DNA of 64,000 nucleotides, from assembly GCA_903825105.1 (NCBI GenBank), contig CAIJZI010000006.1:1399-65398 (forward strand), given 5' to 3'. The notes beneath the pieces are model-generated. The model was not told the DNA's origin. It saw only the letters and a list, made by a program, of their open reading frames with translations, and did not search any database. The position numbers and the translations under genes were made by a program. Positions 25,221-32,610 of the stretch are shown one piece after another (the stretch's first letter is position 1; the number at the start of each line of letters is the position of its first letter). Source of the DNA: an uncultured bacterium (GTDB taxonomy: Bacteria > Patescibacteriota > Minisyncoccia > Phycocordibacterales > Phycocordibacteraceae).

Positions 25221-27962
25221 ATGCCTAAAAAAACAGCAAAAGAATCCCTCGACGATGCTCGGGACAAGGAACACAATTTCAAGCACGGGAGCGACCCCGA
25301 CGCGCGACAAGCGGTCGGGGCTGACTGGCTTACCGTGAAGGGCGCGCGTACCCATAATTTAAAAAATATTAATGTCGAGATGCCACGCGGCGCGATGACG
25401 GTGATCACGGGCGTTTCGGGGAGTGGTAAATCATCGCTCGCTTTTGACACTATTTTTGCCGAAGGGCAACGACGCTATGTTGAATCGCTTTCTGCCTACG
25501 CGCGACAATTTTTAAATCAAATGGCGAAGCCCGATGTCGATGAGATCACCGGACTCTCGCCCGCGATTTCTATTGACCAAAAATCGCGTTCGAATAATCC
25601 GCGTTCGACGGTTGCGACGGTTACAGAAATTTATGATTACTTGCGTGTGCTCTACGCACGCGCCGGTCAGCCGTATTGCGTGAATCATGATGTGCCAATC
25701 GTACGACTTTCAAAAGAAGAAATGATTAAGATGGTTTTCTCGCGGATTGAATCGAAAAGGCACTTAGGAAAGACTTCAAATACGGATTCTGGAAGTCTGA
25801 CTTCTGAAGCGCCTGTGGTTATGGGCGTTGTGGTTGATAAAAGTGCGGTGACGATTTATGCGCCAGTCGTGGTAGGGCGCAAAGGGGAATATTATCAAAT
25901 GCTTTATGACCTGCTCGGGAAAGGTTTTGAAAGAGTGATGATCGACGGGAAGGTGCAGTCGCTACGCGAAAAAGTAATTCTTGATAGAAATAAAAGGCAC
26001 GATATCGACGCGATTGTCGACACGATTTATGTTTCAGAATTTATTCGCTCGACTGATGGCGCGCGCGAACGACTCTCTGAAGCGCTTGAGCTCGCGCTGA
26101 AAGAAACGGACGGCTTGGTGAAAATTGGCCACGCTGATGGCACACTCGAAACCTTATCGTCAAAATTTATTTGTCCTGAAGACGGCGCGTCATTCCCTGA
26201 GGTTGAACCTCGCCTCTTTTCATTTAACTCACCCTACGGCGCATGCCCAGAGTGTCACGGACTCGGCACCGAATCATTCTTCTCTGATGCTCCGTGTCCG
26301 GTCTGCGAAGGGAAGAGACTTCGTCCGGAAGCACTTCGTGTGTATTTAAAAAGTAAAAAAGATAAAACGCTCGGGAAAAATATCGTGGATTTTACAAACA
26401 TGTCGATTCGCGAAGCAAAAGAATTTGTCGACTCGATTGAACTTTCAGAAATGAAAAAGGATATCGCATTGCCGATTTTAAAAGAAATAAATAATCGCCT
26501 CACCTTTATGCTCGATGTCGGGCTCGATTATTTAACACTCAATCGAAGTGCTGCGACTCTCTCTGGCGGCGAGAGTCAACGCATCCGCCTCGCTTCGCAG
26601 CTCGGCAGTGGGCTCACGGGCGCTTTGTATGTGCTCGACGAGCCAACGATTGGTCTCCACCAACGCGACAATGACCGACTGATTAAAACATTGCTCACGC
26701 TGAAAGAGCTTGGCAATACGATTGTTATCGTCGAGCACGATGAGGACACGATTTATTCTGCAGATTATATTGTCGACATTGGTCCGGGCGCGGGTGTCCA
26801 CGGCGGCCGCGTAGTTGAGTCAGGATGGTTGGATGACCTTTTAACTGCCAAGAGCAATGAAACAGGCTCGTTGACTCTTGCTTATTTACGCGGTGAGCGG
26901 GAGATAGTAATGCCTGAGTCGCGACGCGAAGGCGAGCGCGGGTGGATCAAGGTGCGCGGAGCGACTTTGCACAATTTGGTAAATCAAAATATCGATGTCC
27001 CGCTTGGTAAATTGGTCTGCATCACGGGCGTTTCGGGGAGCGGGAAGTCGACCTTTCTCTATCATATTTTGCATAAAAACATTGACGCGCGATTCGGTAG
27101 GAAAGAGGCGAAGCTACAAAATGTCGCTTCGCTCACCGGTAGCGAATATCTCGGGCGCGCCGTTTTAATCGATCAATCGCCGATCGGCAGAACGCCGCGC
27201 AGCAACCCTGCGACCTACACTGGCGCATTCACGCACATTCGCGATCTTTTTGCCGCGACTTCTGAAGCGCGTGCGCGAGGCTGGAAGCCGGGCAGATTTT
27301 CTTTTAATGTTTCTGGCGGTCGCTGCGAAGCGTGTCAGGGCAATGGCTCGATCGCAGTTGAAATGCATTTCTTGCCGACGGTATATGTGACCTGTGATGT
27401 CTGCGAAGGAAAACGATTTATGAAAGAAACACTCGAAGTCACCTATCACGGGAAAAATATTTATGAAGTTCTCCAAATGACGGTTGAAGAAGCCGAAAAG
27501 TTTTTTAAAGATATTCCGGCAATTTCCGATCGTCTCGCCTCGCTGAATGCGACTGGCCTTGAATATTTAACACTCGGACAAAGCGCGACAACACTTTCGG
27601 GCGGAGAAGCACAGCGCGTGAAGATCGCGAGCGAGCTCTATCGGCCGATGCCGATGAAGACGATTTATCTCCTCGATGAACCAACGGTCGGTCTGCATTA
27701 TGAAGATGTGAAAAAATTGATTGAAATTTTGCAGGAGCTCGTACGCCGCGGCAACACTGTTGTTGTTATTGAACACAATCTCGATGTGATAAAAAATGCT
27801 GATTATATTATCGACTTCGGGCCCGAAGGCGGCGAAAAGGGCGGCAGAATAGTCGCGAAGGGCACGCCTGAAGAAGTTGCCGATACTAAAGGCTCCTACA
27901 CGGGCGAGTATTTAGCGAGAGTTTTGCATAACCATGGAAAAAAGCGATCTAAAAAAGTCTAA
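25221..27962 (+). CDS. uvrA: Excinuclease ABC subunit A
   Basis: Two ABC modules ('[15 protein letters not shown]', '[15 protein letters not shown]'); signature '[12 protein letters not shown]' / '[12 protein letters not shown]'; zinc-finger Cys pairs ('CPECHG', 'CEACQG'). Confidence 0.9.
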
Positions 27963-29253
27963 CCTACCGGACAGTCCCGGTATTTATATCTTCAAGCAGG
28001 GAAGAAAGATTTTGTATATCGGCAAGGCGACCAGCTTACGCGATCGTACGCGTTCTTATTTTGACGATGATTTAATCATTACGCGAGGCCCTCGCATTGT
28101 CGATATGGTGACGAAGGCCGATAAAATTTCGCATGAGGTGACGCCAACGGTGCTCGAAGCTCTTGTGCGCGAAGCGGCATTGATTAAAAAATATCATCCG
28201 ATAGCAAACACGGACGGCAAAGATGATTCAACATTTCTATATGTTGTTATTACGGAAGAAAAAATTCCGCGGGTGCTCACGCTTCGTGGCAAAGAAATTG
28301 ATTTTAAAAACCGAAAAACAATCGGCAAAAGGTCAGACCTTAATGCAAGTTCCTCAAGGTCTGACCTTAATCCGAGGCCGATTGTTTTTCGTGCGATTTA
28401 CGGCCCATTCCCGAGTGGTGCACAACTTAAAGAAGCTTTGCGAATTATTCGGCGCATCTTTCCATTTTTTGACACGCCGAAGCCTGTTGAAACAAAAAAT
28501 AAACATCAAGCGGCAAACATAGAGTTTAATAAACAGATTAAACAGTATCCGACTAATTTCGACGCTAAAGAATATCGCCGCACGATTCGGAGCGTGATGC
28601 TTTTCTTAAGTGGGCGCGCAAAAGATTTGAGAATAAAACTTGAAAAAGAAATGCACACGGCGAGCGAAGAAGAGCGATTTGAAGATGCTGCAGAACTGCG
28701 TCGACAACTTTTTGCATTGAATCATATACAAGATGTCTCGCTGATTAAGGATGAGAATCTTGAACGCAGCCCTTCGACAAGCTCAGGGCGATTCGCTTCG
28801 CGAATCGAAGCCTATGACACCGCGCATTTGTCTGGCACGAATGCGATTGGGGTAATGACGGTGGTCATCGACGGCACGCCAGTTAAAAAAGAATATCGCA
28901 CCTTTCGCATCCGTGGCAATGTGGGACTTCCGATGTCCCACATGAAAAACGACGATATTGCCTCATTAAAAGAAATTTTATCGCGTCGCTTTAATCATCC
29001 AGAATGGCAGTTCCCAGAAGTGATTGTCGTTGATGGTGGCAAGACACAGAAAAAAGCAGCAGAAGATTTTTTGAAAGAAAAGGATTTAAAAATTCCTGTC
29101 GTCGCGGTCGTGAAAGATGAAAGGCACCGCCCGCGCGAAGTCTTGGGCGCGCGTGTAGGGAAAATCTCTGAAGCAGACGCTGTTCTAGCGAATAGCGAAG
29201 CGCATCGATTCTCCCTTGTTCGTCACCGCCAAGCCCGCTCGCGTTTGGTATAA
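27934..29253 (+). CDS. uvrC: Excinuclease ABC subunit C, short form lacking the C-terminal HhH region
   Basis: GIY-YIG 'PGIYIFKQGRKILYIGKATSLRDR'; UVR helix 'EERFEDAAELRRQLFALNHI'; RNase H-like endonuclease region 'IEAYDTAHLSGTNAIGVMTVV'. 439 aa. Overlaps uvrA by 29 nt. Confidence 0.7.
   Translation: MEKSDLKKSNLPDSPGIYIFKQGRKILYIGKATSLRDRTRSYFDDDLIITRGPRIVDMVTKADKISHEVTPTVLEALVREAALIKKYHPIANTDGKDDSTFLYVVITEEKIPRVLTLRGKEIDFKNRKTIGKRSDLNASSSRSDLNPRPIVFRAIYGPFPSGAQLKEALRIIRRIFPFFDTPKPVETKNKHQAANIEFNKQIKQYPTNFDAKEYRRTIRSVMLFLSGRAKDLRIKLEKEMHTASEEERFEDAAELRRQLFALNHIQDVSLIKDENLERSPSTSSGRFASRIEAYDTAHLSGTNAIGVMTVVIDGTPVKKEYRTFRIRGNVGLPMSHMKNDDIASLKEILSRRFNHPEWQFPEVIVVDGGKTQKKAAEDFLKEKDLKIPVVAVVKDERHRPREVLGARVGKISEADAVLANSEAHRFSLVRHRQARSRLV
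28329..28370. repeat. Double-hairpin element (GTCwGAC core) in frame inside uvrC
   Basis: AAGGTCAGACCTTAA-TGCAAGTTCCTC-AAGGTCTGACCTTAA, which encodes 'RSDLNASSSRSDLN'. Confidence 0.55.
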
Positions 29254-29260
29254 TAAATAT

Positions 29261-30247
29261 ATGCAAACCGTCGTTGGGATACTGCGAGGCGGGCCTTCGC
29301 GTGAACACGAGGTCTCGCTTAAAACGGGCGCGGCGATAATCGCGAACCTGCCTGAAGACCGATTCGTCGCGCGCGATATTTATATTGATAAAAACGGCGT
29401 TTGGCACGATCGAGGAATCCCGACAACTCCAGATAAAATTCTGCGACAAGTCGATGTGATTTTAAACGGTCTTCATGGCGACTACGGTGAAGACGGCGAG
29501 GTGCAAAAACTGCTCGAACAATTCAGTATTCCTTTTGCCGGTTCAGATTCATTTGGCTCGTATCTCGCGATGCATAAACTAATGTCGAAGAAGCGTGCGC
29601 AGGAGGCGGGACTGCTCACGCCAAAATTTCATTACATCGAAAATATTTCAGACAGCGAAAAAGCGGCAATAGAAATCACGCGAGCCTTTCATCAGCCCGT
29701 TATTGTAAAGCCGGTGAGTTGGGGCTCTTCGATCGGCGTCTCAATAGTTGGCGGCTATGTGCCGGTGCTTCAATCAATTGAAAAACTTTTTGGAGATGGG
29801 GCTAAAAGCGTTTTAGTAGAAGAATATATTCGCGGCAAGGAGGCGACGGCTGGAGTGGTCGAAGGACTGCGCGGAGAGAAGTTGTATGCACTCCCAACAG
29901 TTGAAATTGTTGCTCCAGAAAATGATTTCTTTTCATATAATTCAAAATATTCGGGGAAATCGCGCGAAGTCTGCCCGGGTAAATTCTCGCGCGTGATGTC
30001 TGAAGAGCTGCAGCGCGCCGCGCGCGTGATGCACCGGGCTCTTGGCCTGCGCCATTATTCGCGTAGCGATTTTATTGTCGCACCGCGGAAGGGCGAGCTT
30101 GGTGCAGAGAGTGTGTATTATCTCGAAACAAATACGCTTCCCGGACTCACTTCAGAATCGTTATTGCCAAAATCTCTCGCCGCCGTCGGCGTCTCCTTCT
30201 CTGATTTCTTATCACATCTGGTCAATTTAGCACTAGGGAAAAATTGA
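29261..30247 (+). CDS. ddl: D-alanine--D-alanine ligase (ATP-grasp)
   Basis: 'VVGILRGGPSREHEVSLKTG', 'DVILNGLHGDYGEDGEVQKLLE', 'FHQPVIVKPVSWGSSIGVS', 'ETNTLPGLT'. Start set at 'MQTVVG'. Confidence 0.75.
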   Translation: MQTVVGILRGGPSREHEVSLKTGAAIIANLPEDRFVARDIYIDKNGVWHDRGIPTTPDKILRQVDVILNGLHGDYGEDGEVQKLLEQFSIPFAGSDSFGSYLAMHKLMSKKRAQEAGLLTPKFHYIENISDSEKAAIEITRAFHQPVIVKPVSWGSSIGVSIVGGYVPVLQSIEKLFGDGAKSVLVEEYIRGKEATAGVVEGLRGEKLYALPTVEIVAPENDFFSYNSKYSGKSREVCPGKFSRVMSEELQRAARVMHRALGLRHYSRSDFIVAPRKGELGAESVYYLETNTLPGLTSESLLPKSLAAVGVSFSDFLSHLVNLALGKN

Positions 30248-30291
30248 CTTCAAATTATTGGAAAGAAGTGATAGTATAGAAACACCCTAAC

Positions 30292-30364
30292 GGGCCGTTA
30301 GCTCAGTTGGTAGAGCACCACATTTGCAATGTGGGGGTCGCAGGTTCGAATCCTGTACGGTCCA
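30292..30364 (+). tRNA. tRNA-Ala (anticodon UGC)
   Basis: Cloverleaf GGGCCGT-TA-GCTC-AGTTGGTA-GAGC-A-CCACA-TTTGCAA-TGTGG-GGGTC-GCAGG-TTCGAAT-CCTGT-ACGGTCC-A. Has the G3:U70 Ala identity pair. CCA is not encoded. Confidence 0.8.
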
Positions 30365-30592
30365 CAAAACAAAAGAGCCGTACGCGAGAGCGTTCGGCGA
30401 TTATTGTTTTGTAGGGCTGTACGGGATTCGAAGAGACGGAGCGGGGAACCCGTCGAGCACGACGGGTCGCGAGTCGCGGACACGACCAAAACCGAGTGCC
30501 GACGAGGTTTTGAGTTGCGGACGAAAAGCGTAATCGCGGTCCTGCACAACAGTGGTATTATGTCAGTTATGAACACACCAAACAAAGTTTTG

Positions 30593-31168
30593 ATGACACA
30601 AGCGCGGGAGTAGCTCGAAGGGAAGTGGAGTTCTGCTATCGGATTTTATTTTGTGTATCTCGTGATCACAATCTCGATTAGTCTGTTATTGGGGCTCTTT
30701 AAGATCAAAGGGCTGGCTCCAATCGTGTCGCTTATTCTCACGGGTCCATTCATGCTCGGTGTATCTCTTTTCACCCTGTCATTTTCTCGTGGGCAGCATA
30801 CAGACTACGGTTTTTTGTTTAAAGGATTCAACTACTTCGGTAGGACAGTTGGTGCATATCTTTGGGTGATGCTCTTTACAGTGCTTTGGTCGCTCCTTCT
30901 CATTGTCCCTGGGATTATTGCTGGTATCTCCTATTCTCAAACATTCTTCATAATGGCAGACGATACTTCAACCGACTTTAGAGAAGCGGTGAAGAAGAGT
31001 AAAAGAATGATGCAGGGAAATAATAAGTGGAGATATTTTTATCTTCATATGCGATTCTTGGGCTGGGCTTTGCTCTCACTCCTGACGCTCGGGATTGGCT
31101 TTTTGTGGTTTATCCCGTATGTACGAATAAGCGAAGCGAAATTTTACGAAGATATAAAACACGGATAA
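30593..31168 (+). pseudogene. DUF975-family integral membrane protein interrupted by in-frame TAG at ~30611-30613 (alternatively an N-truncated CDS from GTG 30653)
   Basis: 'MTQARE*LEGKWSSAIGFYFVYLVITISI…' reads through as a typical DUF975 N-terminus. The downstream track ORF 30653-31168 is in the same frame. TAG is a genuine stop elsewhere in the window (e.g. the 8853-8855 stop of the dsbA-like gene). Confidence 0.5.
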
Positions 31169-31214
31169 TTGTTCCCGACAAAATGAAAAATCCGCAAAAA
31201 GCGGATCAGGGAAT

Positions 31215-31260
31215 TTAAAAAACGGACTGTTTGCAATTAATGCATTCAGTCCGTTTTGTT
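31215..31260. terminator. Bidirectional terminator between the DUF975 gene and the receiver gene
   Basis: AACGGACTG-…-CAGTCCGTT hairpin with A/T runs on both sides. Confidence 0.55.
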
Positions 31261-31652
31261 TACGAGCTCAAAGCGGCGGAGAGCTGCCTCTTTAGCGTCA
31301 TCTGTGGCCCGCGCTTACGCCGGGTCACATCCTTGATTGTCTCCAGTAATTCGCCGGCCGAATTACTTTTGTTCAAAAGGGCATTGGCGGCGTCACTCGA
31401 TGCCTCGAACAGAATTATAGGAACGCGCGAGTCCAGCCGTTTTAAATTTTCAGTGAGTTGTACGCTGGTGTCCGGATTCATAAATCTTATAATCACGAGA
31501 TCAATAACCGGATTTTTCAGAAACTGCTTTTCCGCCTCGAGTGGGTCACTCGCCCGTATCAGGTGGAAACAATTTGTCTTAAGCAGATAGGCAAGGATCG
31601 AAATCCTCTCCTCGTCTCCTGCCAAAAGCACCATCTTTCTCGGTCTCCCCAT
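31260..31652 (-). CDS. Stand-alone response-regulator receiver (CheY-like) domain protein
   Basis: Start at 'MGRPRKMVLLAGDEE', preceded by GGAGGA. 'VIDLVIIRF' phospho-acceptor Asp region. 130 aa with no output domain. Confidence 0.55.
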   Translation of the reverse strand: MGRPRKMVLLAGDEERISILAYLLKTNCFHLIRASDPLEAEKQFLKNPVIDLVIIRFMNPDTSVQLTENLKRLDSRVPIILFEASSDAANALLNKSNSAGELLETIKDVTRRKRGPQMTLKRQLSAALSS

Positions 31653-31725
31653 ACAAATCCTCCACAAATCCTTTTGTATTATAGCATAACGCGAAAAATC
31701 CGCAAAAAGCGGATTTTTCGTTTTG

Positions 31726-31796
31726 TCGGGCCGCCGAGAATTGAACTCGGTCTACACGCACCCGAAGCGTGCGTACTACCGGCATACTCCGGCCCG
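31726..31796 (-). tRNA. tRNA-Pro (anticodon CGG)
   Basis: Minus strand: CGGGCCG…; anticodon stem CACGC/GCGTG with loop TTCGGGT; T-arm CCGAG-TTCAATT-CTCGG; acceptor 3' strand CGGCCCG-A; C1:G72 pair. Confidence 0.6.
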
Positions 31797-31867
31797 AAGC
31801 ACCTCAACAGTCTAGCTATTTTTTTGGATAAAGTAAAAGCCCGCCGAGGATCTGGCGGGCTAGGGAA

Positions 31868-32212
31868 CTACTCAAGCAGCACAAGCGATTTGATCAGGCT
31901 CGGAGTGTTCACTTTTTTAGGCAAGATTACAATCTTGTCGCTCGGCACTTTGTCGACGAGTAGAATGACTCTGATGTGCGGATGATCACTGCTTACCGTT
32001 TCCGCTTCCATAATCATTGCACTGGAAGTGAAGATCATCACATCCACCTTACCTTCGTCGGCGAGTTCCATCGCGCTCGTAATAGATCCGACTGTTTGTA
32101 CTGATGCGACGGGGCCTCCGCCGCTCTCTGTGCGGCAAATGTCGTTAACTGCGCAGGTTACCATTTCGACGGTAACATGGTCGCTTGTATCGACTACCAA
32201 AACCTTTTTCAT
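31868..32212 (-). CDS. Small hypothetical protein, possibly a divergent receiver-like fold
   Basis: 'MKKVLVVDTSDH…VDVMIFTSS' resembles the beta1/beta3 strands of receiver domains. Sits between tRNA genes. Confidence 0.35.
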   Translation of the reverse strand: MKKVLVVDTSDHVTVEMVTCAVNDICRTESGGGPVASVQTVGSITSAMELADEGKVDVMIFTSSAMIMEAETVSSDHPHIRVILLVDKVPSDKIVILPKKVNTPSLIKSLVLLE

Positions 32213-32272
32213 CTACCCTCCTTTTTTCAAATTTCCATTTATGACAATAATACTTTTTATGGGAAATGCAAG

Positions 32273-32346
32273 TGCGCTCTACAGGATTCGGACCTGTGAC
32301 CTTACGCGTGTGAAGCGTACGCTCTAACCAACTGAGCTAAGAGCGC
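32273..32346 (-). tRNA. tRNA-Val (anticodon CAC)
   Basis: Minus strand: GCGCTCT-TA-GCTC-AGTTGGTTA-GAGC-GTACGC-TTCACAC-GCGTA…-GGTCC-GAATCCTGT-AGAGCGC-A. Confidence 0.7.
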
Positions 32347-32388
32347 GCATATAGACAATAGCAGACATATCGCGATATTCACAAATTG

Positions 32389-32461
32389 TGGACCCGAGGG
32401 GGATCGAACCCCTTGCCTCGTCCATGCCATGGACGCGCTCTACCAAGTGAGCTACGGGCCC
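32389..32461 (-). tRNA. tRNA-Ala (anticodon GGC)
   Basis: Minus strand: GGGCCCG-TA-GCTC-ACTTGGTA-GAGC-G-CGTCC-ATGGCAT-GGACG-…-GGGGTTCGATCCCCC-TCGGGTCC-A. Has the G3:U70 pair. Confidence 0.7.
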
Positions 32462-32537
32462 GGTTTATTGTGGCGCCGTAATAGGAATTACGGCATCCTA
32501 CAAAATTATACTCGCCGATTACGGCTCGTTAATTTTG

Positions 32538-32610
32538 TGGACCTGAGCGGACTTGAACCGCTTACCTCGTCAATGCGAATGACGCGCTCTACCAGATGAG
32601 CTACAGGCCC
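32538..32610 (-). tRNA. tRNA-Ala (anticodon CGC)
   Basis: Minus strand: GGGCCTG-TA-GCTC-ATCTGGTA-GAGC-G-CGTCA-TTCGCAT-TGACG-…-GCGGTTCAAGTCCGC-TCAGGTCC-A. Has the G3:U70 pair. Confidence 0.7.

Follow-up and report, generated by a model that had tools for sequence, protein, structure and literature searches.

The amber codon that interrupts the DUF975 gene downstream of tRNA-Ala(UGC) is probably a genuine and recently fixed nonsense mutation. It lies at codon 15 of a membrane-protein gene that is intact in all other respects, and the host, an uncultured Kaiserbacteria-like bacterium, has the standard genetic code. All positions given here refer to the window, that is the whole stretch of 64,000 nucleotides that was analysed. 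A previous sequence-only reading of this DNA had listed four options for the stop: a recent nonsense mutation, programmed readthrough, a sequencing error and use of a downstream GTG start. The first of these is the best supported. The features of the locus are collected in Table 1.

Table 1. Features of the tRNA-Ala(UGC) and DUF975 locus, with their positions in the window
Feature	Position	Strand	Basis
Complete tRNA-Ala(UGC)	30292..30365	+	ARAGORN; Rfam tRNA model, 72.8 bits
88-nt near-perfect hairpin	30345..30432	+	Folding, inverted repeat
187-nt lineage-specific insertion, from tRNA-Ala to the DUF975 leader	30366..30552	+	Comparison with L005 and L111
Trailer motif AGCCG..CGGCGA..TTTGTAGG	30376..30415	+	Paralogous to the trailer of tRNA-Ala(CGC), 32497-32526 (-)
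Insertion core of ~100 nt with two stable hairpins	30433..30535	+	+ strand -41.2 kcal/mol, z -2.8; - strand z -1.3
Imperfect direct repeat GCGGTCCTGCACAACA of the tRNA 3' end and trailer start (ACGGTCCACAAAACA, 30357-30371)	30536..30552	+	Read from sequence; modest statistical support
Conserved DUF975 5' leader GTGGTAT...	30553..30568	+	L111 homology resumes at 30553; motif also before the ATG in L005 and L111
Ancestral start ATG and first 14 codons (MNTPNKVLMTQARE) of DUF975	30569..30610	+	P0121 start, tblastn HSP
In-frame amber codon (codon 15)	30611..30613	+	Translation, orthologue alignment; identical in L001-L004
Thirteen intact codons LEGKWSSAIGFYF with invariant L, K, W and the start of TM1; untranslated if TAG terminates	30614..30652	+	Alignments
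171-codon DUF975 ORF from GTG (gene call P0001); would begin in the middle of TM1	30653..31168	+	ORF list, Pfam, AlphaFold2 model of P0003
Extra hydrophobic TM1 residues, window-specific (VITISISLLLGLF vs VIVLLIGS)	30668..30700	+	Alignment, segment lengths

The ATG at 30593-30595, the TAG and the GTG at 30653-30655 share one frame, as translation confirms for the sequence-only reading, and this frame stays open until the TAA at 31166-31168. It reads MSVMNTPNKVLMTQARE*LEGKWSSAIGFYFVYLVI (the asterisk is the stop) and matches the N-terminal consensus of DUF975: where the homologues have MKTENxxLMxxARESLxGKWGLAIG, the window has MSVMNTPNKVLMTQARE*LEGKWSSAIG. All residues of the AR..L.GKW motif are encoded, and the TAG interrupts the translation of helix motif and TM1 as a single polypeptide. 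With the Pfam model PF06161 (DUF975, cut-off 34.8 bits) the ORF from GTG scores 98 bits; when 20 upstream residues are added and the stop is replaced, the score is 116.8 bits. Both forms exceed the cut-off, and because of the rise in score the upstream residues must be assigned to DUF975. The gene thus has a coherent DUF975 N-terminus upstream of the GTG, just as had been claimed.

A search of about 5.8 billion proteins returned 1574 homologues. Among the best 120 of them, 118 cover the N-terminus; the two exceptions are P0001, which is the window's own gene call from GTG, and a truncated relative, P0002. No relative closer than 68% amino-acid identity is present in the databases searched. The nearest full-length relative, P0121 on Logan contig L111, begins MNTPNAVLMERARES / MNTPNAVLMERARESLKGKW. 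Its residues 1-190 align to window positions 30569-31159 in a single tblastn HSP with 67.5% identity, uninterrupted across the stop, and MNTPN... from ATG 30569 is identical to its first five residues. By this colinear single-segment alignment ATG 30569 is the ancestral start of the gene, and ATG 30593 is the conserved internal Met9. The sequence-only reading, which had the gene begin at ATG 30593, placed the start 24 nt too far downstream. Shine-Dalgarno strength is uninformative for picking between the starts: neither ATG 30569 nor GTG 30653 has a match above background, and all candidate starts lie near it.

The 171-aa product from GTG is recorded from seven contigs. Contigs L001-L004, each from an ENA assembly of its own, do not differ from the window in a single base from the 5' end of the tRNA through the TAG and beyond, and two further assemblies, represented without DNA, have the same 171-aa call and the same 406-nt gap to ddl. 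Because four separately assembled contigs carry identical DNA, a one-off sequencing error, proposed earlier as one of the options, is unlikely. It seems to us extremely improbable that an error of sequencing or assembly, or a minority allele, accounts for the TAG, the general error rate of metagenome-assembled genomes being the only point in favour of this. As the four contigs may come from related samples, they show the TAG to be the majority allele there and do not establish its fixation in the whole species.

Nor does the window suggest any change of the genetic code. Among its 69 ORFs of at least 150 codons, 37 end with TAA, 21 with TGA and 11 with TAG, so that TAG indeed terminates other genes, as was noticed before. 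If TAG is read as sense, the genes ended by it are lengthened by just 9-41 codons. Just one junction of this kind is long, that at TAG 2199; behind it come a Shine-Dalgarno-like AGGGG and, at 2214, the ATG of a separate gene. The idea of another TAG-split gene at 1476-2978 was rejected, since two separate genes are present there. None of the five tRNAs which ARAGORN finds in the 64-kb window has a CUA anticodon. In the orthologues the amber column is occupied by Ser (TCC in L111) or Met (ATG in L005, Kaiserbacteria), in most others by Ser or Ala, and a stop is absent from it in all aligned orthologues (alignments of 25 and 40 sequences). As TAG ends other genes, no tRNA of the window reads UAG and no orthologue has the stop, recoding is without support and the earlier opinion that it is unlikely genome-wide is strengthened. 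Reassignment of TAG is an unlikely explanation that nothing in the window favours, with the reservation that a suppressor tRNA could lie outside the 64 kb seen. By comparison with the orthologues, a premature stop at codon 15 of about 199 is a disabling lesion.

Several observations indicate the age of this lesion. In comparison with L005, pN/pS is 0.275 for the 27 N-terminal codons; the 164 codons that follow the GTG give 0.276, with synonymous sites nearly saturated. The window still encodes N5, M9, A12, R13, L16, G18, K19 and W20, which are all eight of the N-terminal residues that are invariant or almost so. Because the N-terminal constraint equals that downstream and the conserved residues are intact, we consider the stop recent. 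Among 76 highly conserved columns the window protein has 3 deviations (its relatives have 0 to 7), and dN/dS downstream of the GTG is 0.126 relative to L085. The gene contains no second stop or frameshift, and relaxed selection was likewise not detected in it. By these comparisons, selection acted on the N-terminus until a short time ago, and no other part of the gene has decayed.

An N-terminus without a second lesion is also what is expected under selection for readthrough. The UAG could be leaky, with near-cognate readthrough in the UAG-C context giving enough full-length DUF975 and possibly lowering its expression; both flanks of the TAG are perfectly kept in frame, and a C after the stop codon makes a weak termination context in E. 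coli. However, the preservation of frame is equally explained by a recent mutation, and no relative in either alignment has a stop at the amber column. We therefore find readthrough rather improbable: of the programmed readthrough suggested earlier, the intact frame on both sides speaks for it and the sense codons of the orthologues against it.

What the truncation removes can be judged from the family and from a predicted structure. The first 20 residues hold 4 of the 31 invariant columns of the family, and a restart product would lose these four. In the AlphaFold2 model of the orthologue P0003 (pLDDT 88, pTM 0.83), the N-terminal helix spans residues 5-16 and TM1 residues 20-38; on this model the first helix contains the stop, and the GTG lies midway through TM1. 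The form started from GTG has an uncharged N-terminal segment of 16 residues, compared with 17 residues in P0002, and it reaches this length partly because of the extra hydrophobic residues in TM1, which are absent from aligned relatives.

The P0003 model is an all-helical membrane fold. Its best match among solved folds is CysZ (PDB 3tx3, a putative sulfate permease), with TM-score 0.59 and probability 1.00; given an E-value of 0.13 and 12% identity, the resemblance is at the level of fold only and establishes no function for DUF975. In the literature DUF975 receives passing mentions, none of which addresses its function.

The lengthening of TM1 just after the GTG could be a sign that use of the short form goes back some time, which is awkward for a very recent stop. 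It belongs to another explanation, namely that the protein started from GTG 30653 is the functional product and that the 28 codons upstream are a dispensable remnant in which selection tolerates or even favours the stop. The dN/dS value and the three column deviations given above document an intact and conserved 171-codon ORF, and the extra hydrophobic residues provide the short form with a first segment similar to that of P0002. Moreover, L085, the contig of this close relative (68% identity), has lost the entire N-terminal coding region: its gene starts with a TTG five codons before the equivalent of the GTG, and a TTGACT-N19-TAATAT box, noticed by eye, precedes this TTG. However, L085 shares 97.2% DNA identity with the full-length L111, and homology between them ends exactly before codon 25. 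Because of this high identity the truncation of L085 is strain-level; the short gene goes back to a rearrangement at that level, or perhaps to an assembly chimera, and is not a long-maintained short form. Further, the N-terminus of all other homologues holds the invariant residues, the N-terminal codons of the window are undecayed, so they were needed until recently, and no good Shine-Dalgarno match precedes GTG 30653. On balance we think of a functional short form as possible, yet unlikely. The option of a downstream GTG start thus stands as far as L085 begins near the equivalent position, and it is weakened by the strain-level nature of that truncation and by the full length of the other homologues.

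If the stop is a recent nonsense mutation, as we prefer, a single step from Ser TCG to TAG would be its likely mutational path. Ribosomes that start at ATG 30569 would make a 14-residue peptide and then terminate, and since termination occurs at codon 15, full-length DUF975 would no longer be made in quantity. The protein would lose its conserved N-terminal helix and TM1 up to the middle, and with them the invariant A, L, K and W. Whatever product is still made would come from restart at GTG 30653, 40 nt downstream of the stop. Either the DUF975 gene is freshly inactivated or it is reduced to an N-truncated form.

Early amber mutations are known to permit translational restart, the classical case being the lacI restart proteins of E. 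coli. The early amber of the DUF975 gene is similar in that an in-frame GTG within ~40 nt could give an N-truncated product; it differs in that this GTG has no Shine-Dalgarno above background. With young bacterial pseudogenes the gene shares a single in-frame stop in a region conserved across orthologues, an ORF that is otherwise intact, and the standard code; the gene caller re-started it at the next GTG. Unlike typical pseudogenes, it has one lesion and no measurable relaxation of constraint.

We now turn to the DNA between the tRNA and the gene. The distance of 230 nt that the sequence-only reading gave for it has to be corrected to 203 nt, measured from the tRNA end to the true start. The spacer was also described as ORF-poor; in fact three spurious ORFs of 69-95 aa cross it, none with homology, and these fit a spacer that is stop-poor and G+C-rich. 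In L005, where the tRNA has its end at 2447 and the gene its ATG at 2477, 29 nt separate the two, and the slot of the insertion holds 15 nt. In L111 the 3' end of tRNA-Ala(UGC) is followed at once by a 135-aa NUDIX gene in the slot. Because homology to both relatives resumes at 30553 and the content of the slot differs, we regard the segment from 30366 to 30552 as a lineage-specific insertion. In the region 1-1044 of L111, the NUDIX hydrolase gene starts 2 nt past the encoded CCA of the tRNA, and 4 nt are shared between its stop and the start of DUF975. We considered whether the insertion is a remnant of this NUDIX gene and rejected it, there being no similarity in protein or DNA.

The most conspicuous part of the locus is a hairpin that unites the tRNA with the insertion. 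Its left arm (30345-30375) consists of the T-loop, the 3' T-stem and the 3' acceptor strand of the tRNA together with the trailer; its centre (30377-30398) is a small hairpin with a GAGA loop, and its right arm (30398-30432) is an inverted copy. The folding energy amounts to -56.7 kcal/mol on the + strand (z -11.45) and -42.2 kcal/mol on the - strand (z -9.19). In the arms 30345-30363 and 30414-30432, 19 nt are repeated in inverted orientation with 84% complementarity, and the three mismatches in the tRNA part, read from the sequence, are all G.U pairs on the + strand. The inverted copy of the T-arm and acceptor sequence seen in the sequence-only reading is hence real, and with the trailer included it is larger than stated there. 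Throughout the insertion the + strand gives better folds than the - strand, since the mismatched positions of the stems are G.U pairs; with so few mismatches this bias is weak evidence of selection on RNA. The + strand of 30366-30600 folds with z -4.0, and the fold of the whole precursor, in which the direct repeat at 30536-30552 pairs with the 5' acceptor strand of the tRNA, has z -7.4. A short imperfect repeat, CGGTCC..CACAA..CA, is present at 30357-30371 and at 30536-30552. The inverted copy derives from tRNA-Ala(UGC), since the trailer of this tRNA is included in it; a remnant of some other minus-strand tRNA was rejected as its source, the downstream Pro, Val and Ala tRNAs having no shared sequence.

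The 187-nt insertion contains no integrase or mobile-element gene and no credible ORF, and it has no match to an Rfam family even at E<=10. No further copies of it occur in the window, the fetched loci, phage genomes or viral contigs. The trailer motif has two matches in the window where 0 are expected; its 29 matches in viral contigs, none of which adjoins a tRNA, are by a rough estimate about as many as chance would give.

The 3' ends of tRNA genes are hot spots of integration and rearrangement, and integrases leave duplications of att sites there. In keeping with such scars, the insertion directly adjoins the tRNA 3' end and has a partial direct repeat at its far side. The slot differs in three related genomes (29 nt, a NUDIX gene and the 187-nt element), and some strain assemblies (L002 and L004) show a second context upstream of the same tRNA. 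Unlike att scars, the insertion has just 187 nt and carries no gene for an integrase or mobile element, and its most conspicuous repeat is inverted, not direct. A scar left by rearrangement at the 3' end of the tRNA suits the insertion best, better than a known RNA gene. The suspicion of a past rearrangement at this tRNA thereby gains support, as the insertion is absent from both nearest relatives and comes with inverted and direct copies of tRNA sequence.

In two of the four same-species contigs (L002 878-970, L004 1-83), the 82 nt that lead up to tRNA-Ala(UGC) differ from the window, in which positions 30240-30291 precede this tRNA. In the L002 scaffold, ddl and the first 53 nt of the tRNA are followed by 10 Ns and then by the differing 82 nt and a full copy of the tRNA. 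Some strains probably carry two copies of tRNA-Ala(UGC) with intervening DNA.

Alternatively, the spacer might encode a functional RNA, either a permuted or minimal tmRNA-like gene or a cis element that couples processing of tRNA-Ala to expression of DUF975. Such an RNA would capture the T-loop and 3' acceptor strand of tRNA-Ala(UGC) with its 5' arm in a 38-bp hairpin, its 3' arm would overlap the DUF975 leader, and tRNA-Ala(UGC) would be co-transcribed with it. The strong structure of the + strand, its advantage over the - strand and the G.U pairs in place of mismatches in the long stem are all in line with this idea. The 5' end of the insertion resembles a tmRNA 5' end: the spacer 5' end GGGCUGUACGGGAUUCGAAG is similar to the 5' acceptor strand and D-loop analogue of tmRNA (ssrA), and, as in a permuted tmRNA, the spacer follows a 3' half of tRNA-Ala type. 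An acceptor-like stem that includes a G3.U pair can be built from GGGCUGU at 30414 and GCGGUCC at 30536, and at a relaxed threshold (-ps90, 90% of threshold) ARAGORN reports a permuted tmRNA.

However, ARAGORN finds no tmRNA with default settings, and its relaxed call comes with 'Tag not identified' and a 25-residue tag that runs into the DUF975 ORF. The spacer has no match to tmRNA or any other family of Rfam at E<=1 or E<=10 and no T-arm ahead of its 3' strand; in contrast to tmRNA, it lacks a credible tag, pseudoknots and its own T-arm. When the 18-mer GGGCTGTACGGGATTCGA was scanned for in metagenomes, it appeared only as the reverse complement of ordinary tRNA 3' ends (tRNA-Asp, tRNA-Val and tRNA-Lys) and in chance coding matches, never as a tmRNA start. 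The resemblance to tmRNA exists because the spacer is the reverse complement of the T-loop (with its TTCGAA palindrome) and the acceptor strand. We rejected tmRNA identity on the basis of Rfam, of ARAGORN under both settings and of the metagenome scan. The element is also absent at the same position in both nearest relatives, and we give the functional-RNA proposal as a whole little chance. A combined version, in which the insertion is a functional + strand RNA that links tRNA-Ala maturation to DUF975 while a leaky amber acts as second brake, would be highly unlikely. A rearrangement scar remains our reading of the insertion.

Some features of the neighbourhood deserve a description of their own. 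The trailers of tRNA-Ala(CGC) (32462-32536, -) and tRNA-Ala(UGC) (30366-30415, +) are paralogous; both have a small hairpin and a TATAAT-like box followed by TTTTGTAGG. On the strength of this similarity in sequence, we suggest that the tRNA-Ala genes may have been duplicated together with their 3' flanks. The minus-strand cluster of tRNA-Pro, Val, Ala(GGC) and Ala(CGC) lies downstream of DUF975 in the window (31725-32610), and upstream of tRNA-Ala and DUF975 in L005 (1910-2447). Its genes are arranged head to tail with almost no spacers in L005, while the window has spacers of 41-75 nt, and a 114-aa ORF (31868-32212) is situated between its tRNA-Pro and tRNA-Val.

An exact 22-nt direct repeat GAAAAATCCGCAAAAAGCGGAT, a hairpin of terminator type, occurs at 31185-31206 and 31693-31714. 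The two copies flank a 135-aa ORF on the minus strand (31260-31667), which weakly resembles response-regulator receiver domains (29 bits with the PhoB model, far below cut-off). Because the DUF975 stop of L085 lies 4 nt from tRNA-Pro, we take this segment of ~550 nt for a second lineage-specific insertion.

The sole sigma-70-like promoter match in 30100-31400 is TTGTGA-17-TAAAAT at 30643-30671 (-), a count no higher than in shuffled sequence. It would drive antisense transcription through the TAG region and the insertion. Further upstream, a UvrC-like ORF (27934-29253) and the ddl ORF (29216-30247) overlap by 38 nt if TTG 29216 is taken as the start of ddl, which probably begins further downstream.

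Taken together, the amber stop is an event of an ordinary kind and not a change of the genetic code, and the tRNA flank is a rearrangement scar with striking structure. For annotation this means that the 171-aa gene call from GTG is what the gene caller left of a gene with a premature stop, not a natural short variant of DUF975; the true start is to be set at ATG 30569 and the locus flagged as interrupted. The DNA just 3' of the tRNA gene is variable in these small-genome Patescibacteria, as the slot is filled differently in each of three related genomes. Were the truncated form functional, the invariant N-terminal helix of DUF975 would be dispensable, which would give a small clue to a family without known function.
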